In this document: piece by piece, positions 2,377-15,909 of the stretch
Layout of the letters: each line of letters starts with the position of its first letter
Numbering within the stretch: position 1 is the stretch's first letter
Origin: Synechococcales cyanobacterium VAR_4_metabat_354
Lineage (GTDB): Bacteria > Cyanobacteriota > Cyanobacteriia > Cyanobacteriales > Chamaesiphonaceae
Direction: 5' to 3'
NCBI GenBank assembly: GCA_031414775.1
Contig: JANOQI010000062.1
Span: 32,001-96,000 of the forward strand
Length of the DNA: 64,000 bases
Notes under the pieces: generated by a model
The model's input: only the letters and a program-made list of their open reading frames with translations
What the model was told of the DNA's origin: nothing
Databases searched by the model: none
Translations under genes and position numbers: made by a program

Positions 2377-3125
2377 TGAAAAAGCTACTGATTTTGGGTG
2401 GAACTGGCGATGCTGTGCAGCTAGCAAAACAAGCTGCTGCCCTCGGCTTTGACGTGATTTCTTCTCTCGCTGGCCGCACCCAGCAATCTCTCAGTGCGAG
2501 TAATGCTGGTGCCGTGCGGATCGGTGGCTTTGGCGGAGTTTCAGGACTGGCCGCCTATCTTCACCAAGAAAATATTGACCTGCTGATTGATGCTACTCAT
2601 CCCTTTGCCCAACAGATTTCCTGGAATGCGGCTGAGGCTGCTGCTCTTGGCGGTATGCCCCGCTTACTGCTATGTAGGCCAGCCTGGGAGCCAATCACTG
2701 GCGATCGCTGGTTTCCAGTCCAGAATCATGCTGAAGCTGCCGCGCTGTTGCCTGGTTTGGCGCAGCGCATATTTTTGACGACCGGCAGGCAAGAATTAAG
2801 TAGCTATGCTCATTTGCAGGAGTTGTGGTTTTTGATGAGATCGATCGATCCACCTCCAGCTCCTTTGCCTCCAGGAGAGATTGTTTTGGCTAAAGGCCCT
2901 TTTACACTGATGGCTGAAAAGAATTTGATGTTGCAACATCAAATCGAAATCATTGTCAGTAAGAATAGTGGTGGAGCCGCCACCTACGCTAAGATTATTG
3001 CTGCAAGAGAATTAGGATTGCCGGTAGTGATGATTCAGCGGCCAGCCATGCCAGCAAGTCTACAAGTCGTCACTATCGATGCTGCATTACGATGGTTAGC
3101 ACCACAGTTGCCAGGAGAAATGTAG
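2376..3125 (+). CDS. cobK: Cobalt-precorrin-6A reductase
   Basis: LILGGT, SLAGRT, RIGGFGG, IDATHPFA and VSKNSGG motifs. Confidence 0.95.
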   Translation: MKKLLILGGTGDAVQLAKQAAALGFDVISSLAGRTQQSLSASNAGAVRIGGFGGVSGLAAYLHQENIDLLIDATHPFAQQISWNAAEAAALGGMPRLLLCRPAWEPITGDRWFPVQNHAEAAALLPGLAQRIFLTTGRQELSSYAHLQELWFLMRSIDPPPAPLPPGEIVLAKGPFTLMAEKNLMLQHQIEIIVSKNSGGAATYAKIIAARELGLPVVMIQRPAMPASLQVVTIDAALRWLAPQLPGEM

Positions 3126-3146
3126 TTATCTATGGATGATGACTAA

Positions 3147-4355
3147 TTAGCGCTTAATTACACACCATTGGGTGATGGGTGCTGAGGCTTTCCAGCCAAG
3201 AAATTTACCGACAGGTTCAGCGTGTTGGATCGCAAGGCGGCTCAAATTTCCTCCGTACTGATATTGAAGCTGAAAAATCCGTTGTTCCGTTTCTACTGTG
3301 ACGGCGTTGGCGACCAGTCGTCCACCGACTCTTAGGTGGTGCCAGCATTTTTCAAAAACATCAGGGATCGTTAAGCCGCCGCCGATGAAAATGGCATCGG
3401 GCATGGGTAAGTCATCGAGAACTGCTGGGGCTTGACCAGCAATGATTTGGAGGTTGGGCACACCGAGCATCGCTGCATTATGGGCTAAATTTTGGCGACG
3501 TTGGGGATGTTGTTCGATCGATATCGCCAGGTTACGAGCATTCGATCGCATCCATTCAATGCTGATCGATCCATTGCCAGCACCGACATCCCACAGTAAT
3601 TGGCCAGGTAAAGGTGCTAGCGCTGCTAGTGTCACCGCTCGGATTTCGCGTTTGGTAAGCTGTCCATCGTGGTCATAACTATCATCTGGCAAACCAGGCG
3701 ATCGAGACATCCCCGACATCGTACTGGGGCAGTTCAGGGCGATCAGGTTCAGTTGGGCAACTTCTCGTTCTGACCAATCAGCCACACTACTGCTAATGAT
3801 TTTTTCAGCAGCGCCGCCAAGGTGTTCTAGCACTGTGATCTGCACATCACTTTGGCTTTGTTGATTTAAGATATTGGCCACTAGCGCAGGGGTGTAGCGA
3901 TCGGCACTCAAAGCCAAAATTCTGGCATTGGGGTAAAGGAGAGCGTTGATTAGGTGCGGATCGCGACCACAGAGGCTAACAGTCTCAATCTCGGGTAATG
4001 GCCAACCGAGCCGACTAGCGGCGAGGCTGAAGGCCGAGGGAGCTGGGATAATCGTGATTTGTTCGATCGGAATGTGTCGAAGAATAGTGGTACCAATGCC
4101 GTAGCACAGTGGATCGCCACTAGCTAAGATGCAAACGGCTTGGCCACGATGCTGTTGAATGAGATCGATCGAATCACTAATTGGTTTTTTCCAAGTCAAT
4201 TGTTGCTGGCTAGTGGCTGGCAGCAAGGATAAATGTCGCTCACCGCCCACCACTAAATCGGCTTGCTTGATGAGGGCGTGGGCAACTGGATTCAGACTAT
4301 CCAGACCATCATCGCCAATCCCAATAATTGATAGCCATCGATCGATCATGAGCAC
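3147..4355 (-). CDS. cbiET: Precorrin-6Y C5,15-methyltransferase (decarboxylating), CbiE-CbiT fusion
   Basis: IIGIG, GGERHL, LASGDP, GQLTKREIR and WDVGAGNGS motifs. Confidence 0.93.
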   Translation of the reverse strand: MLMIDRWLSIIGIGDDGLDSLNPVAHALIKQADLVVGGERHLSLLPATSQQQLTWKKPISDSIDLIQQHRGQAVCILASGDPLCYGIGTTILRHIPIEQITIIPAPSAFSLAASRLGWPLPEIETVSLCGRDPHLINALLYPNARILALSADRYTPALVANILNQQSQSDVQITVLEHLGGAAEKIISSSVADWSEREVAQLNLIALNCPSTMSGMSRSPGLPDDSYDHDGQLTKREIRAVTLAALAPLPGQLLWDVGAGNGSISIEWMRSNARNLAISIEQHPQRRQNLAHNAAMLGVPNLQIIAGQAPAVLDDLPMPDAIFIGGGLTIPDVFEKCWHHLRVGGRLVANAVTVETEQRIFQLQYQYGGNLSRLAIQHAEPVGKFLGWKASAPITQWCVIKR

Positions 4356-4479
4356 TAACTTTAATTACGGCTATTTCACCGCCTATTGTAACTGTTGCTC
4401 AGTTATAAAATTGCTGATTTTCAATGTTGCCAATTCGATCGTGGCTACTTTCAAAATTACTACAATATGAATTATATAC

Positions 4480-4658
4480 ATCTAGAGTAATAGTGTTTAA
4501 ACTGAGACAGTCCAGTCTAAACACCCAATTCAGGGTGTTATGCGAATGAATATCGTGCTAATTTCCCTATTTTCTAGGGTATAGGCGGACAGGTGTCGGT
4601 ATATATGCCTGGTTTAAGGGGGTTATACTGAATCCGTCAGTATAACCAGTAGTTAGGC
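4480..4658 (+). repeat. Cassette-array leader: four ~42-bp-period palindromic units ending in an attI-like core site
   Basis: IR gtgtttaaactg-N8-cagtctaaacac (4493-4524); weaker IR units at ~4535 and ~4578; perfect IR ggttatactga-N5-tcagtataacc (4621-4647); then GTATAAC-cagta-GTTAGGC (4640-4658). Homologous copy on the minus strand at 14100-14196. Confidence 0.7.
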
Positions 4659-4738
4659 TTCTCATCTATTGTTATTGAAGCAACCTAGCAAATTGATTTG
4701 AAAGCTACATTTACATTAAAATTTGATTTTGTTTAAAA

Positions 4739-5404
4739 ATGAAAATAGACCAGAAAATAATTCAGCGAATGGATGATTTGTTGGCAGCAGGAGAAAGTGT
4801 TCTTTGTACTAAAAAAAGCCCTTCTAGCAATTCAATTGGTTTTGACTCATTAGTTAATTCTCAAGATGCTTACCAATGGTTTACAAGTGTTCAAAATCTT
4901 TTAGTTAGGGTTTTTGGTGAGGAAAGTGAGCACTATAAAAATTTTAGTGCACAAGACAAAAAAAGACTAACATATTCTCATGTTTATCGAGCACAAGGAA
5001 TTCTCAAAGCTGCTAAAGATGATTACGAACATGAACATCTTTTTGATCTAAAGAAGATAATTGAAGCAGAAGTTTTTGATGATTTCTTAGATCAAGCAAA
5101 TGCACTATTGGAAGCAGGTTATTTCCAACCTGCCGCAGTTATTGCTGGAAGTGTTCTTGAGGATGGATTGAGAAAGCTCTGTGTAAAAGAAAATATATCT
5201 TTACCTCCAAAACCGAAACTTGATTTAATGAATGCAGAATTAGCGAAGTCAGGATTGTATAATAAACTTACTCAAAAAAAGATTACGGCAATTGCGCATA
5301 TTAGAAACAATGCTGCGCATGGACATTGGGATCAATTTGAAAAACGGGATGTGCAAGAAGCTATATCTTGGATAGCCCAGTTCATGGAAAGTAACTATGC
5401 CTAA
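4739..5404 (+). CDS. HEPN/DUF4145-like protein (cassette 1)
   Basis: AT-rich; C-terminal R-x4-H motif (RNNAAH); stop codon lies inside the attC R'' box GCCTAAC. Confidence 0.7.
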   Translation: MKIDQKIIQRMDDLLAAGESVLCTKKSPSSNSIGFDSLVNSQDAYQWFTSVQNLLVRVFGEESEHYKNFSAQDKKRLTYSHVYRAQGILKAAKDDYEHEHLFDLKKIIEAEVFDDFLDQANALLEAGYFQPAAVIAGSVLEDGLRKLCVKENISLPPKPKLDLMNAELAKSGLYNKLTQKKITAIAHIRNNAAHGHWDQFEKRDVQEAISWIAQFMESNYA

Positions 5405-5488
5405 CAAGCGGCTGCACACGGAACTAGTTATTACTCTGTCGGTTATGATGCAAAGTGTTTAGCTGTCCGGTGAGCGTGACCGTTAGAC
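5399..5488 (+). other. attC site (integron cassette recombination site)
   Basis: GCCTAAC ... ctgcacacgga / tccggtgag ... GTTAGAC, 90 bp, imperfect hairpin with bulged bases. Confidence 0.85.
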
Positions 5489-5523
5489 CGCTCAGTAAAA
5501 ACTTTTTAGGATAGTTCCCGTCA

Positions 5524-5913
5524 ATGAACCTCGAATTCAGCCGTCGTCTTGCCCTGTTGGGGATTGTTCCACCCATAGCTGATACCGTTCGTCGTTGGCA
5601 CCAATTGGGTGACTTAAAAATCTGGCCTTTTTGGTTAGATGATTTTCTTCTTGGTGGTTTTCTACTCTACGGTGCATGGTTGACACAAAAGGATGCGAAC
5701 AATGGTAGACGCTTTCTTTCGGCTGCTTGGGGGTTTGCTTGTGGCATGGTGTACCTCAGTTTTTTCGACCAGATTACTTCTCTCGACAAACCCGATCCTG
5801 CCCCGATCCCTTCTGAATGGGTCGCTGTAATTAAAGGAATATTCTTCTTTCTTGCTGTTTTGGGATTGATTGGAAGTTTATGGGGAAACCCTAGAGAGTC
5901 TAGGCGACATTGA
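5524..5913 (+). CDS. Hypothetical membrane protein (cassette gene)
   Basis: 129-aa ORF with several hydrophobic segments, immediately after an attC. Confidence 0.7.
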   Translation: MNLEFSRRLALLGIVPPIADTVRRWHQLGDLKIWPFWLDDFLLGGFLLYGAWLTQKDANNGRRFLSAAWGFACGMVYLSFFDQITSLDKPDPAPIPSEWVAVIKGIFFFLAVLGLIGSLWGNPRESRRH

Positions 5914-5983
5914 TAAGTGGGACTGAATTGATCATCTGTCTCAAGCTAAAATGGAAGCGTCAAGTCGCAGCGAGGACAACCCC

Positions 5984-6259
5984 ATGACAGTTCGACAACC
6001 CCGATATAGCAAAGAAGAGTTCGCCCAGCGCGGCGATGTACTCTATGAGTCTCAGATTCGCCAACAAGTCGAAAAAGGCAATCATGGGAAGATAGTGGCG
6101 ATCGACATTGAAACCGGAGCCTTTGAAGTCGCAGACGATATCGTAACCGCATCAGAGCATCTTCTCACCAGAGTGCCGGATGCCCAGACTTGGTTTATCC
6201 GCATTGGACACCAGGCTGTATACCATTTTGGTGCGCGGAGTCTGAGAAAATTCGGATGA
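5984..6259 (+). CDS. Small DUF5678-like protein, partner of a retropepsin-like protease
   Basis: MTVRQPRYSKEEFA...GKIVAIDIETGAFEV; GAGG RBS; ATGA overlap with next gene. Confidence 0.7.
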   Translation: MTVRQPRYSKEEFAQRGDVLYESQIRQQVEKGNHGKIVAIDIETGAFEVADDIVTASEHLLTRVPDAQTWFIRIGHQAVYHFGARSLRKFG

Positions 6260-6624
6260 TACATGGAATAGTCAATCAAAATTGTGAAGCGATCCTTTCT
6301 GTTGTCGTAAAGAATGACACTAAAACACAACTAGTTGATGTAGTAGTCGATACAGGTTTTTCCGGCTTTCTGACTCTGCCCTCTAGTATGATTACGGCTT
6401 TGGAATTAGTTTGGAAGGGGCGTGATGTTGCGACTTTGGGAGACGGCACTTCCTGTATTTTTGAAGTTTATATTGCAGTTGTAATCTGGGACGGGCAATA
6501 CCGCACGATCGACATCAATGAATCAGAAACTATTCCTCTAATTGGGATGCAATTGTTACGAGGCTATGATTTACGGATTCAGGCAATAGAAGGTGGTAGT
6601 GTTACAGTCAGTCTACTAGAGTAA
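6256..6624 (+). CDS. Clan AA (retropepsin-like) aspartic protease
   Basis: VDTGFSGFLTLP catalytic DTG motif and PLIGMQLL motif. Confidence 0.85.
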   Translation: MIHGIVNQNCEAILSVVVKNDTKTQLVDVVVDTGFSGFLTLPSSMITALELVWKGRDVATLGDGTSCIFEVYIAVVIWDGQYRTIDINESETIPLIGMQLLRGYDLRIQAIEGGSVTVSLLE

Positions 6625-6633
6625 TTCTGGTCG

Positions 6634-6656
6634 TTCGCGCAGCGTTGCGCCAGCGA
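6634..6656 (+). repeat. Short dispersed repeat (SDR5-like) inserted at CG^ATCG
   Basis: tCG|ttcgcgcagcgttgcgccagcga|ATCGc; removing 23 nt restores CGATCG. Confidence 0.6.
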
Positions 6657-6662
6657 ATCGCA

Positions 6663-6744
6663 GGCTAACAAACCAGTTGGGGTTGGCATTCTCTAGAGAT
6701 GCTAGCTCAGACACAACATTGTTTGCTCAACCAGAACGTTAGCC
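6663..6744 (+). other. attC site (somewhat degenerate)
   Basis: GGCTAAC-aaacca-GTTGGG ... CTCAAC-cagaac-GTTAGCC, 82 bp. Confidence 0.7.
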
Positions 6745-6799
6745 TCTGAGTTATCTGTGGGAACGTAACTGGAAACTTATCTGTAGGTTTGTGCGGTAA

Positions 6800-6896
6800 G
6801 GGCTTGTAAAGAAACAACTTCATGTTTTGAGGCTGAAAGCTTTTCCTTGTCGGGAAACTACCGATCGAAACCATGAGCTTATTTTTTTACAGCCCC
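6800..6896. mobile_element. MITE (97 bp) with TAA target-site duplication
   Basis: ~30-bp imperfect TIRs gggcttgtaaagaaacaacttcatgtttt / aaaccatgagcttatttttttacagcccc, flanked by TAA at 6797-6799 and 6897-6899. Confidence 0.7.
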
Positions 6897-6987
6897 TAAG
6901 TGATTCAGGAGTCTTGGGTTAGAACACGGTCGGAGTATCTATCGATGGGGTGAGGTTGCAAAAAAAATATCCAGGTAGAATTTACCT

Positions 6988-7155
6988 ATGGAAAATCGAA
7001 GTAGATCCGGCTTTCGCACACGCCTATTAGTATTCTTCGCTTTGGCGTTTGCCTGGTCGTGGGTCTGCTGGCTCCTGACTTCAGTTATTAGACCTCAATT
7101 GCCCTCTTTAGCTGGGGTAAATTTTCTGGTGGTTGGCTTCGCATCACGATTATGA
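6988..7155 (+). pseudogene. N-terminal fragment of a CPBP (CAAX/Abi) intramembrane protease
   Basis: 55-aa ORF containing LLVFFALAFAWSWVCW, typical of the first TM helix of CPBP proteins. Confidence 0.5.
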
Positions 7156-7221
7156 GACCTGTCGGTGGACGGAACGGACTGCGTATCTGGCTCGATTTGA
7201 TGCCGACAATCGAGAAATTAT

Positions 7222-7563
7222 ATGGAAAGTAAAACCAAACTAACACTGATTAAAATCATTCATACTGCGATCTAGGTATTCTTCAATGTTGTAATTTTCT
7301 ATATGCTGTATGCCGCGATTGCCAATAAACTCGATCACTGGCTCTGGATCGGTTATGGACTTATCGCTCTAGAAGGGCTAATCCTACTCACTTTTAAATC
7401 CCACTGCCCATTAAATCTGCTGGCTCGAAAATACACCAATTCCACCCAGGACAATTTTGATATTTATCTTCCCAGTTGGCTAGCCAAGTATACAAAATTA
7501 ATCTACACCACTATTTTCGCGATCGTTACAATCATCACCATCTATCAAATAATGTCGAATTAA
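7222..7563 (+). pseudogene. Membrane protein with an in-frame nonsense codon
   Basis: MESKTKLTLIKIIHTAI*VFFNVVIFY continues in frame into ORF 7303-7563; TAG at 7273-7275 (likely TGG->TAG). Confidence 0.7.
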
Positions 7564-7589
7564 AAAATACCAAAACACTGGAGGCAGTA

Positions 7590-8351
7590 ATGACCAAACA
7601 AATTTCTCTTGATGCGCTATGGGATTCAGCCACATCTCAGGATCGTATATTCCGCTTAGAGGACTTCACGCACCTGCCAGAAGTCGCCAGACGATATCTT
7701 GAACACGCGATCGAACCTGGAACAAAGATCGCTTCTGCGGTGCGGTGGAAAATGCACGGCGAAATCAAATTAAAAAAGTGGATTCCATTCACAGCCGAGC
7801 AAGTCGTTTGCTGGGAACATGGACTGATTTGGAGTGCTACCGCATGGATGAATAGCTTCTTGCCCATTGTCGGCTCGGATCGGATCATCGACGGCATCGG
7901 TGCGATGCAGTGGAAGCTGTTAGGATTATTCCCTGTGATGACGGCGAGTGGTGCTGATATTACGCGGTCTGCTATTGGTCGCCTCCAATCAGAGTCACTC
8001 TGTTTACCATCTGTGTTCTGTGGCGATGATGTTTCATGGACAAGCACAGAGTCGTCGGAATTAGACTCCAATTTGCATTCCAGTTTTGTCGTGCAAGGTG
8101 AGCGAGCCGAACTAGACTTCACGATCGATCGAACAGGTCGTCTCAAAACCTTCAAGCTACCACGCTGGGGCAATCCAGACGATACTGAGTTCCGTTGTGT
8201 GGACTTCGGTGGAATTTTGGAGGAAGAGAGCACATTCTGCGGCTACACCATTCCGACCCGGCTACGGATTGGCTGGTACTTTGGCTCCGATCGGTTTGAG
8301 CCGGAGGGCGAGTTCTTTCGAGCCACGATCGATGATGCAATCTATCGATAG
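7590..8351 (+). CDS. DUF6544-like protein
   Basis: LPEVARRYL, WIPFTAEQ and RWGNPD motifs; GAGG RBS before ATG 7590. Confidence 0.7.
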   Translation: MTKQISLDALWDSATSQDRIFRLEDFTHLPEVARRYLEHAIEPGTKIASAVRWKMHGEIKLKKWIPFTAEQVVCWEHGLIWSATAWMNSFLPIVGSDRIIDGIGAMQWKLLGLFPVMTASGADITRSAIGRLQSESLCLPSVFCGDDVSWTSTESSELDSNLHSSFVVQGERAELDFTIDRTGRLKTFKLPRWGNPDDTEFRCVDFGGILEEESTFCGYTIPTRLRIGWYFGSDRFEPEGEFFRATIDDAIYR

Positions 8352-8375
8352 AACAATCTACGTCAAAGGATAAGG

Positions 8376-8657
8376 ATGAAAAATGAGAAAATATCCAATT
8401 GCTTGGTTCTATATCTTGGCTTTTGGTATGTCATGGCTTGGCATGATATCGACCGTCTTAGCCTCGCGAGGCACAGTACTAAAGGCAGTATTTTGCTAGT
8501 GGCGCTTCTTCATGGTTCGCTGAACGTGTGGGGACTATTTATAACTGGGGTGTCCCCTGTCGCATACGCTCTTCTAAATTGTGTGGTGGCGATTATCCTA
8601 ATAGCAGTGTTTGGAAGAGTAAATCTCTCTCGTCGAGAAAAGGTTTGCGCGGGCTAA
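8376..8657 (+). pseudogene. C-terminal fragment of a CPBP (CAAX/Abi) protease
   Basis: TKGSILLVALLHGSLN (CPBP HxxxN motif) without the EE..R motif; stop codon lies inside the attC R'' box. Confidence 0.6.
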
Positions 8658-8738
8658 CAATTCAAATGCAGCGAACGGAAGAGAGATCTTGGTGCTGAAT
8701 CTGAAGTTGTCTGCTGCCGCTGATTTGAGCCGTTAGAG
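8652..8738 (+). other. attC site
   Basis: GGCTAAC-aattcaaATGCAGCG ... CGCTGATttgagcc-GTTAGAG, 87 bp. Confidence 0.85.
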
Positions 8739-8764
8739 AACTTGTGAGGTGGGAAATCAATACA

Positions 8765-8875
8765 GTAAGTAGGCAGACATAATTGTTAGTAATATCAAAA
8801 TTACTTGAAATTCATATTGTGAGGTAATTAAGCCTCATAAAGCATCTTAATATTTAATTCAGCCCAGCTACTTAC
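8765..8875. mobile_element. MITE-like element
   Basis: Imperfect TIRs gtaagtaggcagacataatt / aattcagcccagctacttac around an AT-rich core. Confidence 0.5.
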
Positions 8876-8994
8876 ATAGTTCTGGTAATGTCTTGTCTTG
8901 TATTGTTTCCCACTCCGTAATCTAGATTATTCCCAAATTGGATTAAGATATAACGTTTGTATTAGATTCTCAATCTAAATTAATATACAATCTA

Positions 8995-9027
8995 AAAAAA
9001 CTACTAAAAGCCTTTAGCAGTTTTTTG
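8995..9027. terminator. Bidirectional intrinsic terminator
   Basis: aaaaaactactaaa-agcc-tttagcagtttttt hairpin with A and T tracts. Confidence 0.6.
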
Positions 9028-9051
9028 ATTTCGCAAATCTAATCGCTAGCT

Positions 9052-10617
9052 CTACTTAGCTGCTGAGGCTAATTCTTTAGTAATAACTGGTGCAGTCAAA
9101 GCATCTTCCAGCTCAGACTTACCCAATCTTGCTTCGAGAATATTCATCACTTCTCGACCGAAATCATTAGGATTATCACGGAAGGCTTGCAAGCAAACTT
9201 CGCCAAAGAATGAGCCTAATGGTTCAGGATTCCAGAGTAATTTTTTGGCCACCCAAGGCATGTGGCTCATCGGGTTGTAGCCTGGTTTAATCACATTGTT
9301 TTTGAATGCATATTCTTCTAAATGGGTATGCGGCTGTAAACCGATAAAGAAGATGGCTGGTTCAACTTTATCTACACCAAAAATCTTTTCCATTTCACGG
9401 TGATAGGCAATCGTTTGGCGAATAGTTTCAAAACTTTCGTCAATTACATTAAAGGAGTAATTGATCGATACCATATCTTCAAATCCAGCCGCTTTGAGAT
9501 CGCGACAGTTTTGTAAGACAGTGCGGAGATTATAGCCCATCCGCATCTTCCTTACTAATTCTTGAGAGCCACTAGTAATGCCAATCTCAAAATAATTCAT
9601 CCCCGTTTTGACCATCAAATCACACAGTTCGGGTGTAAGATTATCAGCTCGAATATAAGCTGCCCATTTGATATCTTCCATCCCACTCGCAATGATTTTT
9701 TGTAATAACTCGATCGCATCATCCATATACTTGCGCGCCGGGATAAACTGAGCATCTGTAAACCAGAAATTCCGAATGCCACGATCATATAATTGGCGCA
9801 TCTCGGCGACTACTTCATCCGCTGGATTTATTCGTACTTGCTTACCTTCAATTACGGTATATACACAATAGCAACAGTTATGCGGACAACCGCGTTTGGT
9901 CTGTACACCGACATAGAAATCTCGATCTTGTAAGTAATAACTAAATTCTGGCCAAATTGTCTCGATATAGTTGTAATTGCACGCCGTCTTCTCGATCGAA
10001 GCTGGCAGTTCATGCACCAATCCTTTCCGAGGTGCTTCGCCCACAATATAGCAACGCTCAGGAGCGAGATCTTCGTTCCTAATAATTTTCTCTAACAATG
10101 CTTCACCTTCACCGATCGAGACGATCGATCCTTTCGGCAAACTCTTGGCCAACTGCTCATAGAAAACACTGACAGCACCGCCACCGACGACCAATTTAGT
10201 TAAAGGATTGTATCTTTGTGCCCGTTTTAGCCCACGTTTAATCAGAGACATATTCCGCCATAGCTCGGTATAGTGACTCTTGAGCATCCTGGCACCACCT
10301 AAAGCACCGCGTAATTTTTTGAGCGGATTGCGATCGTAAAAAACTTCAAAGGAGTTCTGGAGCGGATTACCCCCCCGGCCGCCGACTGGTGCATAAATTT
10401 GGATATCTCGCCAGGAATAGACTAGTAAATTTGGCTGAAATTCATCGATCGCAATATCCATGGCCGCACCATAATCTAGTGGCGGTACTGCGCCCAGATC
10501 AAAGATCCGTTGCTCGGCATCAGGGAACTGCTTATGAACGTGATCTGATAAGTAGACAACCCCGATCGGAAAGATCGGATTGCAAGGGAGACGACAGTAG
10601 AAAATGCGTTCTGTCAT
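9052..10617 (-). CDS. B12-binding radical SAM protein (PSII high-light acclimation, Slr0320-like)
   Basis: RLPCNPIFPIGVVYL N-terminus; CxxxCxxC motif (CPHNCCYC). Confidence 0.9.
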   Translation of the reverse strand: MTERIFYCRLPCNPIFPIGVVYLSDHVHKQFPDAEQRIFDLGAVPPLDYGAAMDIAIDEFQPNLLVYSWRDIQIYAPVGGRGGNPLQNSFEVFYDRNPLKKLRGALGGARMLKSHYTELWRNMSLIKRGLKRAQRYNPLTKLVVGGGAVSVFYEQLAKSLPKGSIVSIGEGEALLEKIIRNEDLAPERCYIVGEAPRKGLVHELPASIEKTACNYNYIETIWPEFSYYLQDRDFYVGVQTKRGCPHNCCYCVYTVIEGKQVRINPADEVVAEMRQLYDRGIRNFWFTDAQFIPARKYMDDAIELLQKIIASGMEDIKWAAYIRADNLTPELCDLMVKTGMNYFEIGITSGSQELVRKMRMGYNLRTVLQNCRDLKAAGFEDMVSINYSFNVIDESFETIRQTIAYHREMEKIFGVDKVEPAIFFIGLQPHTHLEEYAFKNNVIKPGYNPMSHMPWVAKKLLWNPEPLGSFFGEVCLQAFRDNPNDFGREVMNILEARLGKSELEDALTAPVITKELASAAK

Positions 10618-10675
10618 GGTGGTTGTAGGTAACAAATTATGTTAAATGGTGAGCTACAAAGAAATTTTAAGTATC

Positions 10676-10693
10676 TTTATATAAAGTTACACA
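10676..10693. promoter_or_regulatory. HLR1-like (RpaB) direct repeat
   Basis: TTTATATA-aa-GTTACACA about 60 bp upstream of the radical SAM gene. Confidence 0.45.
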
Positions 10694-10872
10694 AAATTGT
10701 CTGATTTAGGGGCTTTTGGGTCAGGAATTTCTAGGCTCAGCTCTGACCTAGAGGACTTTGACGGGGTGAGACTGTTCGTGATGGTAGTGATGGTTACAGC
10801 CGGGGGATCAAGGCAGTGATAGTTTAGTCTTCAATTACTTTTCATAAAAGGGTGCATCCCACCCCAAATAAT

Positions 10873-11217
10873 ATGTCTCAAATTTTAGATCCCGTTCCTT
10901 CGGATCGCTCCGATCCGATTTTCTGCTGCTACATCAATAACAGTAGCCAAGTGCAAATCGCGAGAATTACTAATATTGATAACTGGTACTTTGAGCGTGT
11001 TGCTTTTCCTGGACAACGCCTGATTTTTGAAGCGCCGATGAACGCGTATTTAGAAATTCATACTGGCAAAATGACTAGCTCGATCTTGTCCGATCGCATC
11101 CCTTGTATTCGTTTGCAGGTTGATGATCTAGACGAAGGCAGTTGGGAGAGTAACATGCTCAAAAGTTCGCCAGCTGAGTCTAGCTTGGCTGTTCCTAAAT
11201 TGGAGTATCAATACTAG
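10873..11217 (+). CDS. DUF1830 protein
   Basis: MSQILDP...QIARITNIDNWYFERVAFPGQRLIFEA. Confidence 0.85.
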   Translation: MSQILDPVPSDRSDPIFCCYINNSSQVQIARITNIDNWYFERVAFPGQRLIFEAPMNAYLEIHTGKMTSSILSDRIPCIRLQVDDLDEGSWESNMLKSSPAESSLAVPKLEYQY

Positions 11218-11309
11218 ACACATGTTGGCAAATCTTTTAGCGCTGGGGGTTGTCTACACCGGATTGCCCCCAGTTGCTATGATGATGACTGATTGTGGAT
11301 GAGTGAGTC

Positions 11310-12440
11310 ATGAGCAAGCCCGCAGAAATAATTGTGATTGGCGGTGGAATTATTGGCCTATCGATCGCCTTAGAACTTCATTGGCGGGGTCTAGCTGTCC
11401 AAGTTTTAACCAGAAGTAATACAGAAGCGGCTACCTGGGCAGCGGCAGGGATGCTGGCTCCCCAAGCCGAAGGAATTCCGTCCAGTGCCCTATTGAATCT
11501 CTGCTTATGGAGTCGCAGTTTATATAGAGGATGGACGGCGAAGCTCTCTGCTATGACGGGGTTAGATACTGGTTATTGGGAATGCGGCATTTTAGCTCCT
11601 AAGTATCAGCAATTAGATGAATTAAATGAAACCAACTGGCTAACTGTCGCAGAGTTGCAAACTTACCTCCCCCGCACTAAGTTAAGCTCCGAAGTTGTTG
11701 GTGGTTTTTGGTTGGCCGCCGATGGCCAGGTAGATAACCGGAAACTTTATCAGGTGCTGCGGACAGCGGCTCAGATCGCCAATATCGAAATTGTCACCGA
11801 TATCGAAGTCCAAGCTTTTGATCAGCCAGCTGACCGGATCGATCAACTAACCACCAATCAGGGTGATTTTAGTGCCAGCCATTACGTTTTAGCTACTGGA
11901 GCGTGGTCCGGGCAATTACTACCTATTCCGGTCGTTCCTCGCAAGGGGCAATTACTGGCATTACAGGTACCCGATATCCATAATTTGCCCTTGGAAACCG
12001 TGCTGTTTGGCGAAGAGACCTATATTGTGCCACGTCGCGATGGGCGGATTGTGATTGGAGCAACTAGCGAAGATGTTGGTTTCTTGCCCGGTAATACTAG
12101 TGCTGGATTGCAGGAATTAATGGCCAAGGCTACGCGGCTCTGTCCCCCGTTAGCGACTTACCCCATTCAAGAGCAGTGGTGGGGCTTTCGGCCTGCTACC
12201 GTCGATGAGCAGCCCATTTTGGGTGATAGTCCCTACGCTAACCTCACCTTGGCTACGGGTCATTATCGCAATGGTATTTTAATGGCGCCAGCTACGGCTC
12301 AACTAATTGCTGATGCCTTAACTCAGGTCACTAGCGATCACCACCACTTGCTAGCGCATTTTAGCTACCAACGATTTGCCAACCAAAAATTATTTCCTGG
12401 TGCTGATGCTACCCAGTTGTGTCGCACGGCTAGCGCCTAG
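11310..12440 (+). CDS. thiO: Glycine oxidase
   Basis: GGGIIG, AAAGMLAP, WGFRP and GHYRNGIL motifs. Confidence 0.9.
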   Translation: MSKPAEIIVIGGGIIGLSIALELHWRGLAVQVLTRSNTEAATWAAAGMLAPQAEGIPSSALLNLCLWSRSLYRGWTAKLSAMTGLDTGYWECGILAPKYQQLDELNETNWLTVAELQTYLPRTKLSSEVVGGFWLAADGQVDNRKLYQVLRTAAQIANIEIVTDIEVQAFDQPADRIDQLTTNQGDFSASHYVLATGAWSGQLLPIPVVPRKGQLLALQVPDIHNLPLETVLFGEETYIVPRRDGRIVIGATSEDVGFLPGNTSAGLQELMAKATRLCPPLATYPIQEQWWGFRPATVDEQPILGDSPYANLTLATGHYRNGILMAPATAQLIADALTQVTSDHHHLLAHFSYQRFANQKLFPGADATQLCRTASA

Positions 12441-12494
12441 CCCCAAAAAATAGTACATTGATCACCATCACTTTGTCACTAAGAGAGAACAACT

Positions 12495-13007
12495 ATGTTG
12501 GTTAACAAGTCTTTACTGCGTCGGGTATTGCCAGTGCTGGCTGTGATCGGCTGTACTATTGTTATTCTGCCGAGTAGAGCGGAGTACACGCTGTTTAGCG
12601 GGGTCGAACCCAAAAACCAACTTAGTTACAGCCTCGATTTTGGCAAGCGATCGATCACTGATAGCTATCGCCTTGTATTACCTGGCCGCAAAATGCAACT
12701 GGGCGCAGTCCAGCTCAATATTCTTTATCCGGAGAACTACAACGGAGTATTTGATGAAAACCAAATTACCATCAGCGCTGGTGAACAATCTATTCCGATC
12801 GCTGGCGTTAAATGGCAAAAAGAAAAGCGCAATCTCCAAATTGACCTGAAAGAACGTCTGCAAACCAAAGGTGATATCAATATCGTGCTGGGCAATGTCC
12901 GCAATCCAGACAAAAGTGGGTTGTTCTATTTTGATTGTCAGTACCGCAGCAGCCCTAATTTCCCGATCGCTAGATATGCTGGCACTTGGATTTTAAATAT
13001 TAAATAG
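12495..13007 (+). CDS. DUF2808 family exported protein
   Basis: Signal peptide; YPENYNG, NVRNP..G.FYF and GTWIL motifs. Confidence 0.75.
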   Translation: MLVNKSLLRRVLPVLAVIGCTIVILPSRAEYTLFSGVEPKNQLSYSLDFGKRSITDSYRLVLPGRKMQLGAVQLNILYPENYNGVFDENQITISAGEQSIPIAGVKWQKEKRNLQIDLKERLQTKGDINIVLGNVRNPDKSGLFYFDCQYRSSPNFPIARYAGTWILNIK

Positions 13008-13128
13008 CAAAAATTATATATTTGGAATAGTTTCTCAGAACCGCACCGCACAGCAATCCCTAGAAGCTTGATTCTCTTGCTTTAAGCCCTTGTTGGCCTC
13101 AATCACACCAGAATTCTAAAATTCACCG

Positions 13129-13683
13129 TCAAAATAAACTTTTTGCATATTCGTGCCAGTAAGCCGCAATCTCAGAAGTCTGCTTCAAAATTACGTCCGG
13201 AAGCAAGTCTGCTGGCCAAAAAGCAAGATGATAGAAGTCTACAGGTTCTTCTTCCTCAAGAATAGTATCCACATCTTTGCCGCGATCCATGTCACGAACA
13301 CAATAGCGTACTCGGTAAGTTCCAATTGAAAGCGGAATTTCGCAAACACATTCACCGTTCCAATCGTAGAGGGAAACTCCCTCACCATTTATCACAAAAG
13401 GAACTTCTACAACTTCTTCCCATGCTTGGTCAAGAGGAGGGGGAGCATCCAGCACGTCTATACTCAACCGGACGTGACCAGTATGCAGCCCTGTAATCAA
13501 AAAAAGTATATCAGATATGGCTGCTCCACAAAGCCCATTCGTCTGACCTTGAAAACAAGCAGATAGTTCAGCAGGTTCTTGGGCGTTGGACAGGACGTAT
13601 GCCTGTCCATAATGGACATACAAGCATCTATCGAAGATTCGAGTCATTTGGAGTAGATCGCCATGTTTATTTGTGCTGGACAA
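13129..13683 (-). CDS. Hypothetical acidic protein (cassette gene)
   Basis: 184-aa ORF starting just after the attC R' box GTTAGGC (minus strand). Confidence 0.7.
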   Translation of the reverse strand: MSSTNKHGDLLQMTRIFDRCLYVHYGQAYVLSNAQEPAELSACFQGQTNGLCGAAISDILFLITGLHTGHVRLSIDVLDAPPPLDQAWEEVVEVPFVINGEGVSLYDWNGECVCEIPLSIGTYRVRYCVRDMDRGKDVDTILEEEEPVDFYHLAFWPADLLPDVILKQTSEIAAYWHEYAKSLF

Positions 13684-13690
13684 CTTTGCT

Positions 13691-13777
13691 GCCTAACGGC
13701 TTGGGCTTCAGCGGTAGCAAGAGTCTTCGAGTCAAAAACAGAGTATTGAGGCTATCCGCTGCAAGCCCTGGTTAGAC
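13691..13777 (-). other. attC site
   Basis: Minus strand: GTCTAAC-cagggcTTGCAGCGG ... CCGCTGAAgcccaagcc-GTTAGGC, 87 bp. Confidence 0.85.
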
Positions 13778-13804
13778 AATGCAGAAAGACCGACAAAAAC
13801 TCAA

Positions 13805-14056
13805 TTATCTCACTGCGCGCAGCTCCTCTTGAATAACTCGGCGTAGTGTTTCTTCATCTAGAGGCTGCTTCACTTTTTCTAGATACTCCCGCAAAGCCTC
13901 ATTCATGATAGTTTGATAGCCTTTGCCAGCAGAGTCACTCCGTTCTCGAAAGGTTCCTAACACATCATCGTCAATATAAATTGTGATACGAGTTTTACCT
14001 GTCTGGGGAATGACAGCACCCCGTTTTGCTTGACTAAAATCATATTCCGCTTTCAT
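13805..14056 (-). CDS. brnA: BrnA/DUF4415-family antitoxin
   Basis: MKAEYDFS, KTRITIYIDDDV and GYQT.MN.ALR motifs. Confidence 0.85.
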   Translation of the reverse strand: MKAEYDFSQAKRGAVIPQTGKTRITIYIDDDVLGTFRERSDSAGKGYQTIMNEALREYLEKVKQPLDEETLRRVIQEELRAVR

Positions 14057-14099
14057 ACTTCTGTCTCTCCGAACGGGTCGCTGGACGGGCTGAAATCAG
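14040..14099 (-). pseudogene. brnT: 3' remnant of BrnT toxin
   Basis: Reads LISARPATRSERQKYESGI*, the BrnT C-terminal motif, overlapping the brnA start; 5' part absent. Confidence 0.75.
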
Positions 14100-14196
14100 C
14101 TAGAAAACAGGAGTGTTAGCCCGACAGCTGTCTGCATAACACGCAAAATTGGGTGTTTAGACTGCATTATTTCAGTTTAAACATTATTTTCTAGAT
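14100..14196 (-). repeat. Second copy of the cassette-array leader (first two palindromic units)
   Basis: Minus strand atctagaaaataatgtttaaactg-N8-cagtctaaacacccaattttgcgtgttatgcagacagctgtcgggctaacactcctgttttctag aligns to 4480-4577. Confidence 0.8.
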
Positions 14197-14628
14197 AAAT
14201 ATATTTCACTAATATTTTGTAATAATCTCAAAAATCATCCCGATCGATCAGGGTCTATTCTTGCAACCTTGCGGGACAGCTGTTCTGTAATGTTACTGAT
14301 AAGGAGCGATCAGGCTATGAAGGAATGCAATGGAGTTGAGTTTAGAGATTAAATTTTGGGAATGGCAGGCAGGGGCTTTTTGACAAGTGGTCACCCACCT
14401 GTTTTTTTGGGCAGTTCTGAAGATGTTTCCGGATCAGCGAAAGCCGCCATCGTAAATTATGACAACACTTTGGGCATTCTAGGTACAACAGCCTTAGCTC
14501 TACCCAGACATCACTCATGTACCTCATTAACAAATACTGCCCAGTGATTTGCGACCAAATTTATTCTTCGTCAACAGCTTCTGCACACCAAATTTCGCCT
14601 TAGTTGAGTAGGATTGGAATTCCAATTT

Positions 14629-15909
14629 ATGTCCATCATCCCTAATTTATTAAAAAATAATGAATCGCCTGTCAGTGATATTCCTTTAGAGATAGAGGAT
14701 GAGAACATCGACGAAGAATTACCTGCTACTTGGCAAGAGCTAATCAACCTCGAAGATTTAGAAGAGCCGGAGGATGAAGTTGCTGACCAATCCAGCAAAG
14801 GCCAGCAGACCTACAGTCGGGATCTAGTTCGCCTCTATTTGCAAGAAATTGGCCGCGTCAAGCTATTAACTCGTGATGAAGAAGTGGCCGAATCCCAGCT
14901 GGTGCAACGCCATGGCCAATTGTTAGAGATTAGAAATATGGCAGCTGCTGCCGTTGCTACTGGTAAAAGTAACGATGCCATTATTGAAATGTATACGCGG
15001 CTAATTAATATCCGCGATCAGATGACCGTGCAAAGTGGACATCGGCCATTACCAGAGCGATGGGCAATAGCGGCTGGTATTGATGTGGGATTGCTCAAAC
15101 CCCAAGTTGCTGCTGGGAAAAAACGCTGGGCAGAACTCGCTAATGTGACCGTCGCAGAATTAGAGGAGATCCAGCTCAAGGGGGTAGCAGCCAAAGAACA
15201 TATGATCAAAGCCAATCTGCGGCTAGTGGTGTCGGTAGCTAAAAAATATCAGCACCGGGGCTTAGAACTCTTAGATTTGATTCAAGAAGGCACGATGGGC
15301 TTAGACCGAGCGGTGGACAAATTTGATCCGACCAAAGGCTATCGTTTTAGTACCTACGCTTATTGGTGGATTCGCCAAGGCATTACCCGTGCCCTTGCCA
15401 CTCAAAGCCGCAATATTCGTTTGCCAGTACACATCACTGAAAAGCTGAATAAGATTCGGAAAGTACAGCGCCAACTGACCCAAGCTGGAGTTTCTCCCAA
15501 ACTAGAAGAAGTCGCTCATGCGCTGGAGATGACTCCTGAACAGGTGCAAGAAGTCTTGATGCGGGTGCCTCGATCGATCTCCCTGGATGTAAAAGTCGGT
15601 AAAGACAAAGACACTGAATTAGGTGATTTGCTGGAAGCTGTCGAAATCTCGCCCGAGCAATTGCTGATGCGGGAATCTTTACACGGCGAGTTGCTACAAC
15701 TCCTGGCCGACCTTACTGAAAGAGAGCGGGAAGTAATTGCCCTGCGCTTTGGTTTGGGTCATGATCAATCTTACTCCCTGGCTGATATTGGGCGGATTCT
15801 CGATCTATCCCGCGAGCGGGTGCGTCAAATTGAAGCCAAGGCTTTGCAAAAGCTGCGGCAACCTAAACGCCGCAATCGGGTCCGTGATTATTTGGATATT
15901 CTTTGCTAA
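14629..15909 (+). CDS. sigC: Group 2 RNA polymerase sigma factor
   Basis: DLVRLYLQEIGRV, ANLRLVVSVAKKY; C-terminal KLRQPKRRNRVRDYL typical of SigC. Confidence 0.85.
   Translation: MSIIPNLLKNNESPVSDIPLEIEDENIDEELPATWQELINLEDLEEPEDEVADQSSKGQQTYSRDLVRLYLQEIGRVKLLTRDEEVAESQLVQRHGQLLEIRNMAAAAVATGKSNDAIIEMYTRLINIRDQMTVQSGHRPLPERWAIAAGIDVGLLKPQVAAGKKRWAELANVTVAELEEIQLKGVAAKEHMIKANLRLVVSVAKKYQHRGLELLDLIQEGTMGLDRAVDKFDPTKGYRFSTYAYWWIRQGITRALATQSRNIRLPVHITEKLNKIRKVQRQLTQAGVSPKLEEVAHALEMTPEQVQEVLMRVPRSISLDVKVGKDKDTELGDLLEAVEISPEQLLMRESLHGELLQLLADLTEREREVIALRFGLGHDQSYSLADIGRILDLSRERVRQIEAKALQKLRQPKRRNRVRDYLDILC

Follow-up and report, generated by a model that had tools for sequence, protein, structure and literature searches.

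Why would two gene-cassette arrays in one bacterial chromosome, neither with an integrase gene beside it, begin with the same non-coding leader? The question is raised by a 64,000-nt stretch (hereafter the window) of the genome of Synechococcales cyanobacterium VAR_4_metabat_354 (Chamaesiphonaceae; GCA_031414775.1, contig JANOQI010000062.1, positions 32,001 to 96,000), in which array A runs on the forward strand and array B on the reverse strand. A preliminary description of the window took the leader for a dedicated module of a dispersed capture platform, served in trans by a distant integron integrase (IntI), rather than for a sign of one decayed integron. The repeated leader is a copy of the host integron's own spacer between the integrase gene (intI) and its attI recombination site. 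Taken together with data from the genus and from other cyanobacteria, A and B would be integron platforms that lost intI, spread and were reworked in trans, a reading to which we assign a probability of about 0.6. Below, G000 is this genome, C62 is the contig of the window and other C numbers are further contigs of G000; G001 upward are genomes of relatives, and L numbers are individual loci extracted for comparison.

The arms of the two leaders (4489-4577 in A and 14100-14188 in B) are 76% complementary over 89 nt (76% over 89-110 nt), and the A/B match has an E value of 1e-15 in BLAST against the whole genome. The homology described earlier thus stands, and its length of ~96 bp has to be revised, the module in A being ~195 bp (4458-4652) and ending in an attI simple site. 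Four clear leader copies were found in G000 by BLAST and nhmmer, A, B and one each on C27 and C35, to which a profile search adds three partial copies (C14, C57 and C31). On C35, the leader runs directly up to the start codon of a gene for a full-length integron integrase and is followed by a cassette and an attC site, which identifies the leader as the intI-attI spacer. The C35 IntI (320 aa) scores 469-470 bits against TIGR02249 (cut-off, 265), alone exceeding the cut-off among five matches in G000, and 370 against the class-1-type model NF011946, under the cut-off of 435. A distant IntI whose attI resembles the leader, as had been postulated, is therefore present in this genome. The absence of a tyrosine recombinase from the window is likewise borne out, as all 11 PF00589 matches of G000 lie on contigs other than C62; C62 also has no TIGR02249 match, and no intI trace is seen to the left of A or B. 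The C35 integron adjoins an alaS-like gene (named from its sequence, without a family call), at a locus common to G001 and G007.

The leader in array A, complete with its recombination site, is laid out as follows.

4435..4457, plus strand: left boundary of platform copy A, where homology with the C27 and B copies begins at a CGATCG word of the HIP1 (highly iterated palindrome 1) type
4458..4639, plus strand: leader A, the copy of the intI-attI spacer, with alternating L-type and R-type IntI-like heptamers at a period of ~41 bp, strongest at 4515, 4537 and 4622
4640..4658, plus strand: attI simple site of A, with L box 4640-4646, a 5-nt spacer, R box 4652-4658 and crossover after G4652

Homology among the leader copies stops directly after the G/TT crossover. 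The crossover at G/TTRRRY is present in A (4640-4658) and has been deleted from B. The earlier identification of the leader as an attI region is right, with B as a copy that lacks the crossover site. The junctions of both arrays are not assembly errors, as contigs from another run (same study, same strain) cover 2800-5613 at A and 14040-15200 on the B side with 0 differences. A contig from a second study, 92% identical, covers 4006-4506, indicating that the leader starts beside the same gene in a related strain too. Two exact-pattern scans of metagenome contigs gave 0 matches and no second strain of the species with a readable locus A; a scan of the genome collection gave three loci. No evidence was drawn from the break at 4445-6096 in run X1 (92% read) or from the missing cover of cassette A1 in X5; joints that skip region B in X3 and X4 were set aside (sides <30 nt, probably from other organisms), and five runs with shares of 0.06-0.07 were not taken as evidence of habitat.

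A period of 40-42 bp was seen in all eight leaders examined; in seven of them 0/200 shuffles were as high, and in A 6/200 were. A profile of the attC/attI core heptamer reveals alternating L- and R-oriented boxes along the spacer, several of them weak. The number of array units varies, G009 having internal duplications and G004 and G007 deletions, and the earlier observation of kept palindrome arms with changed centres fits such a periodic array with variable units. These features suggest that the array consists of IntI-binding boxes. Excision of the whole platform by IntI at a second simple site at the 5' end of the array was considered and rejected, since copies without an intact intI (hereafter solo copies) keep sequence left of that site. 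Rfam has no match in the window at gathering score, and none at E 0.05 in five leader loci. Between intI and the array, a conserved palindromic word occurs in L117-L122, L124, L125, L127 and L131 and is less clear in this genus; lying beside the intI start, it resembles the cyanobacterial LexA box.

The attC calls rest on a covariance model of 17 attC sites, all from relatives, and not on that of IntegronFinder; it was applied to the full 64 kb with filters off. In this model, 8/16 pairs show compensatory change, and 95.5% of cells are paired versus 77.9% after shuffling. Four loci are called in the window: 5399-5488 (50 bits), 6663-6744 (32) and 8652-8738 (57) in A, and 13691-13777 (52 bits) in B, in the orientation opposite to that of A. 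This upholds the three sites counted in A and the one or more in B as exactly 3 + 1; a fifth row is the other strand of 8652-8738 (E 0.17). The model alignments contain inverted R''/R' and L''/L' boxes with extrahelical bases, as in cassettes, and the ends of open reading frames (ORFs) overlap or adjoin R''. Folding alone is weak for some sites, with z of +1.0 for 5399-5488 and of -1.7, -1.2 and -3.4 for the other three. A genome-wide scan by pattern and folding gave 195 candidates, which was too noisy, and the covariance model was used instead. Ten more attC matches lie on five contigs of G000 (C38, C50, C30, C53 and C15), whose scanned stretches show no leader; of these contigs, C38 and C50 are small and may be continuations of the C35 array.

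The distribution of the leader in relatives ties it to integrons. The A leader matches 11/11 congeneric genomes (2-6 matches each), 1/13 of the sister genus and 0/16 of other families, and a second leader query matches 11/251 genomes of the order, all within this family. IntI above the cut-off was found in 10 of the 16 genomes searched, all of them congeners. The relatives' set comprises all 39 distinct loci matched by the A leader: intI is intact at 9 of these (one cut by a contig end), a remnant at 17 (a stub, internal deletion, pseudogene or piece; two of the 17 are weak) and without trace at 13. At nine relatives' loci, as on C35, the leader abuts the start of intI, the position expected of attI next to intI. 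All 37 attC matches at the 39 loci lie downstream of the leader in cassette orientation (157 kb scanned), with 0 in 133 kb upstream, in line with the prediction that the leader stands consistently 5' of cassettes; 17 of the 37 are training sites of the model and 20 are not. A downstream attC match is present at 20/30 copies without intact intI. The left neighbours of the copies are nearly all different, and only the C35 locus recurs with intI (in G001 and G007). At that locus, L049 (G007:C64) matches C35 in the intI 3' end and flank (protein 84% identical) and carries a leader of a different type, suggesting replacement through recombination of one integron copy with another. In L051 (G005:C164), the sequence found after intI in L030, L047, L053 and L058 joins the leader on its left side (90 nt), pointing to a near-precise deletion of intI.

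The intI remnants at 17 of the 30 loci without intact intI imply that solo copies arise from integrons that lost this gene. The proposal of a dispersed platform rather than decay is thereby modified: copies of the platform do exist, and the leader is no separate module. Several intI-less forms seem, moreover, to have been copied as such. L073 and L077 (G009) have in common an internal deletion that fuses the start and the end of intI; upstream they are 89% identical, and they lie at different loci with different first cassettes. Likewise, L064 and L066 (G009; 96% over 106 nt) and L071 and L079 (G005; 93% over 172 nt) each have a common intI loss at different loci with different first cassettes, and A and C27 have a common left end and a 6-nt deletion, again with different loci and first cassettes. 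Copying after intI loss is the simplest explanation of these pairs. Of the 43 leaders placed in a FastTree analysis, B, C27, L059 and L063 were trimmed to the homologous part; in the resulting tree 10/15 tip pairs fall within one genome, and label shuffles reached a maximum of 7 in 20000.

What follows the crossover also bears on this history. A cassette entering at attI brings its own core, so that the R box at the crossover should complement R'' of the first attC. Among the 26 copies scored, this complement is exact in 15/21 without full intI, including A (permutations gave a mean of 3.0, and 0/20000 were as high), and in 4/5 with full intI. Such a complement would show that a cassette entered at the site, whatever the date of entry. 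Together with the different first cassettes of the copied forms, it suggests that IntI acting in trans probably set or changed what follows G/TT at the solo copies.

The left ends of the copies may reflect a different process. Many left homology ends lie 0-10 nt before the start of the array, and in 8/30 pairs (not independent; background 6%) homology ends within 12 nt of a CGATCG word. Among eight pairs with true flank boundaries, chosen afterwards, four end within 7 nt of CGATCG (binomial p 7e-4, post hoc). Up to such a word, L056 and L059 also contain the end of a host gene that neighbours the C27 copy. As a lead only, left ends might often have been made at CGATCG words, and right ends by IntI. 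There is some evidence for a role of HIP1 in site-specific recombination (PMC4390886). In G000, TCGATCGA occurs 1937 times and the canonical HIP1 word GCGATCGC 655 times, an excess that may point to relatives of Chamaesiphon (PMC4390886).

In the mechanism that we propose, A and B would each have begun as a copy of the intI-attI region of the host integron, from which intI was deleted. The intI-less platform itself would then have been copied to new chromosomal places, often with its left end at CGATCG, and the single intact IntI, encoded elsewhere, would have acted in trans on the solo attI sites to add cassettes or take them out, a service that may continue at present.

The cassettes of array A follow its attI site directly.

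4653..5482, plus strand: cassette A1, with ORF 4739-5404 (221 aa; a weak HEPN match, below the cut-off) and attC 5399-5488
5483..6738, plus strand: cassette unit A2, with ORFs 5524-5913, 5951-6259 and 6256-6624 and attC 6663-6744
6739..8738, plus strand: cassette unit A3, with small ORF pieces, ORFs 7303-7563, 7590-8351 (DUF6920) and 8376-8657, and attC 8652-8738
8763..8880, strand not assigned: short repeat with inverted ends that follows the final attC of A, apparently resembling a miniature inverted-repeat transposable element (MITE), with one 80% copy on C63

With three attC sites (32-57 bits) and no intI nearby, A is an attC cluster without an integron integrase (CALIN), and with no intI in cis neither A nor B is a complete integron. 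A is a CALIN that retains a whole attI and, with this site and three cassette units, is a candidate live landing site. ORF 6256-6624 in A2 resembles clan AA aspartic proteases, just below the cut-off; the gene pair 5951-6624 to which it belongs (a 102-aa ORF and the protease-like ORF) is also found in relatives' cassettes and recurs at three other places in G000 with 69-75% identity.

Array B is less complete.

14100..14247, minus strand: leader B, the 5' ~125 bp of the array (14224-14100), with its left boundary at CGATCG 14241-14246
13691..14099, minus strand: cassette B1, 5'-truncated, with the end of a brnT-like gene, the brnA antitoxin gene 13805-14056 and attC 13691-13777
13032..13690, minus strand: cassette B2, with ORF 13129-13683 (184 aa, no family) and a degenerate attC-like stretch at its end (~13032-13098)
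9052..13007, strand not assigned: four host genes between the arrays, outside the element

The B leader keeps only the 5' two-thirds, being cut at 14100 with deletion of the distal third and the attI crossover site. Over 405 nt, B1 shares 92% identity with a cassette of the C27 array, from which the brnT-like end was identified, and the B and C27 leaders are only 74-79% identical. The attC model missed the second, terminal attC of B (~13032-13098), which is degenerate, and with one model-called site B alone resembles a single attC site lacking an integron integrase (SALIN). B is a truncated relic, apparently frozen after deletion of the crossover site. The four core genes said to separate the arrays encode a Slr0320-type radical SAM protein, a DUF1830 protein, ThiO and a DUF2808 protein. 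An inversion between A and B is ruled out by their collinearity in G001 and G009, and the convergent layout gives no sign of function, these genes being collinear with those of relatives. In G008 (L082/L093, G008:C65:29314-29515), a solo leader of a different type follows the same radical SAM gene, in the direction opposite to A. The gap after the DUF2808 gene (13008-14390; L085:6185-8688, L088:1-1073) holds differing accessory DNA in G000, G001 and G007 and therefore looks like an insertion hot spot.

Orthologous empty sites, whose comparison had been proposed, exist for both arrays. In G001 (DNA 91% identical) the genes flanking locus A are 60 bp apart, and in seven relatives the DUF2808 gene and a sigma factor gene are adjacent, without a leader, at locus B; G001 and G007 have other inserts at locus B, with no leader or attC match. 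A scan of 16 loci for the leader returned only the already known G008 copy, and no clean target site was found at the empty-site comparisons. Both a gain of A in this lineage and a loss in G001 fit the empty site.

Several observations weigh against the proposal that A and B are platforms copied without intI and reworked in trans. Leader A is 74% identical to the C35 spacer, and among the seven copies in G000 just C35 and A are whole, B, C14 and C57 being truncated, C27 interrupted and C31 degenerate. G004 (99% complete) and G012 have leader copies and only fragments of intI. Ten of the 30 copies without intact intI have no downstream attC match (4 of these 10 lie <700 bp from a contig end), and among the matches listed (contigs, four runs) there is no variant junction at the A crossover or between attC sites. 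In eight solo-solo pairs, which are not independent and whose divergence may in part predate intI loss, conserved columns differ at 53/512 (10.4%) versus 155/985 (15.7%) for variable columns (p 0.004), suggesting that selection on solo copies is at most weak or modest. Gene conversion or mixed strains in a bin could mimic part of the same-genome tip pairs, and non-cognate attI/IntI pairs are described as generally inefficient (PMC8946536). The C14 copy has an intI stub of 23 codons. The C27 leader is split by a ~200-bp, MITE-like insert with inverted ends (G000:C27:23674-23470, L226).

The damage to most G000 copies and the weak conservation in solo pairs also favor ordinary decay, in which complete integrons were gained or duplicated repeatedly, their arrays were filled with intI present and intI was then lost, leaving the solo copies as inert CALINs that still show attI. 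This history, too, accords with the many intI remnants and with a full intI beside at least six different neighbours within the genus, and intI loss is a known route to CALINs (PMC4889954). It leaves unexplained one common deletion junction at two loci with different first cassettes, unless gene conversion spread the junction; in 8/10 comparisons, moreover, identity to the intact copy is higher for the leader than for the intI stub beside it (e.g., 0.88 versus 0.70), and the many left homology ends just before the array start also speak against it. We regard decay alone as the main rival, though an unlikely account.

It is improbable that the array now serves instead as a promoter or regulator of the first cassette genes through a host factor that binds it, its part in recombination being over. 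Such a role would suit the retention of the 5' part without a crossover site in B and of copies in the two genomes where no intact intI was found, and cassettes do need an upstream promoter (PMC4889954); nevertheless, a promoter scan of 4350-4760 stayed at background (2 matches versus 1.8 expected), and the repeated boxes match the attC/attI core profile. The dispersed copies and the MITE-like pieces after array A and inside the C27 leader could hint at a leader that is one end of an insertion sequence (IS) or transposon by which the cassettes were brought in. This is very improbable and is contradicted by the position of the leader in intact integrons, since copies abut the intI start codon and stop at the G/TT crossover, and flank clustering of 43 copies, made without a search of an IS database, revealed no partner end or common transposase neighbor.

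The copied, intI-less platform is not confined to this genus. In a scan of 79 loci, the leader profile matched 21 of 28 cyanobacterial intI loci at E <1e-4, five of the 21 being congeners close to the training set, and in five of the seven without a match most of the upstream DNA, or else the 5' part of intI, is missing; among 51 non-cyanobacterial loci the best match had an E value of 0.0025. Additional leader copies were seen in 8 of 10 genomes probed, the other two giving no match and a single weak match. In the complete Egbenema genome (L117), the integron lies at 4.70 Mb. An intI-less copy at 1.81 Mb, 90% identical, stands ahead of a cassette and attC, and of two partial copies the one at 2.18 Mb has an attC downstream and the one at 2.59 Mb gave no attC match. 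The three intI-less copies have a common upstream block of 540-830 bp (L220:6440-7246, L221:3487-4308, L222:6285-6861), 85-95% identical, which contains an 82-aa ORF without a Pfam family, has no Rfam match and has weaker relatives beside leader matches in three other genomes. This block may replace intI in the copied unit. A Myxacorys contig (L219:3633-9330) carries three intI-less leaders of ~230 bp within 6 kb, 90-94% identical and each before a different gene, with a strong downstream attC match for two and only a weak one for the third; two are in tandem and one is convergent, and a short attI-core piece lies near 5030-5065.

CALINs, the mobilization of their cassettes in trans, insertion at attG sites and delta-attI cassettes are established (PMC9668308; bioRxiv 10.1101/2025.06.18.660453; bioRxiv 10.1101/2022.09.11.507474; PMC3108266; PMC4390886; PMC8946536; PMC4889954; PMC12901181). 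Like CALINs (PMC4889954) and SALINs (bioRxiv 10.1101/2022.09.11.507474), the arrays have attC cassettes and no intI nearby (B being the single-attC case), and genomes with CALINs commonly have an intI elsewhere. What differs is that array A keeps a recognizable full attI region, and the intI-less platforms appear to be recent same-genome copies with different first cassettes. Cury et al. (2016) give four CALIN origins, cassette genesis, secondary-site insertion, intI loss and rearrangement, and copying of an attI platform is not among them (PMC4889954). The C35 integron has the intI, simple site and cassettes of a sedentary chromosomal integron, with the same spacer. Such integrons usually occupy one position per genus, such as ilvD in Xanthomonas (bioRxiv 10.1101/2025.06.18.660453), unlike these platforms, which lie at many unrelated loci, several per genome. 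As in class 1 attI1 (65 bp; L, R, DR1, DR2; PMC12901181, PMC8946536), there are an L box, a 5-nt spacer, a GTTRRRY R box and extra upstream box-like sites; unlike attI1, the region is ~200 bp (to ~350 bp in other cyanobacteria), with a 40-42-bp period and alternating boxes, putatively IntI sites, in variable units. In attG insertions, IntI in trans also places cassettes outside the main integron, but attG sites are genomic sites unlike attI (bioRxiv 10.1101/2022.09.11.507474), whereas the arrays described here are headed by homologues of a true attI. Delta-attI cassettes also carry recombinogenic attI pieces away from intI, and the truncated C14 and C57 copies resemble them; delta-attI pieces, however, replace attC at the cassette end inside mobile integron arrays (PMC12901181), whereas the copies here head arrays at separate chromosomal loci. 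The open literature yielded no report of attI-headed, duplicated intI-less arrays or of a periodic cyanobacterial attI; attI alignments in the supplements of PMC9668308 or of the IntegronFinder papers may bear on this.

It is possible, though less likely than not, that many cyanobacteria have a distributed integron, in which one integrase gene serves several live attI pads dispersed along the chromosome and a variable-length, 40-42-bp-periodic IntI-binding array propagates without intI; IntI would make its right end at G/TT, and recombination at HIP1-type CGATCG words would often make the left one. How CALINs arise and how active they are is an open question, in part since attI is unrecognizable in most genomes, and Cury et al. 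note that the attI of most integrons is unknown and hence unsearchable (PMC4889954). In the cyanobacteria, attI is long, conserved and searchable with one profile, so that intI-less arrays can be sorted into those headed by attI and those that are not. The periodic array is an unusual attI architecture, whose role in synapsis or in independence from host factors is of interest. A distributed integron, if true, would provide a further origin of CALINs and would allow many cassettes to stand in first position at once; should the solo attI sites be live, these genomes would no longer fit a picture in which a single integrase goes with one attI and one ordered array.

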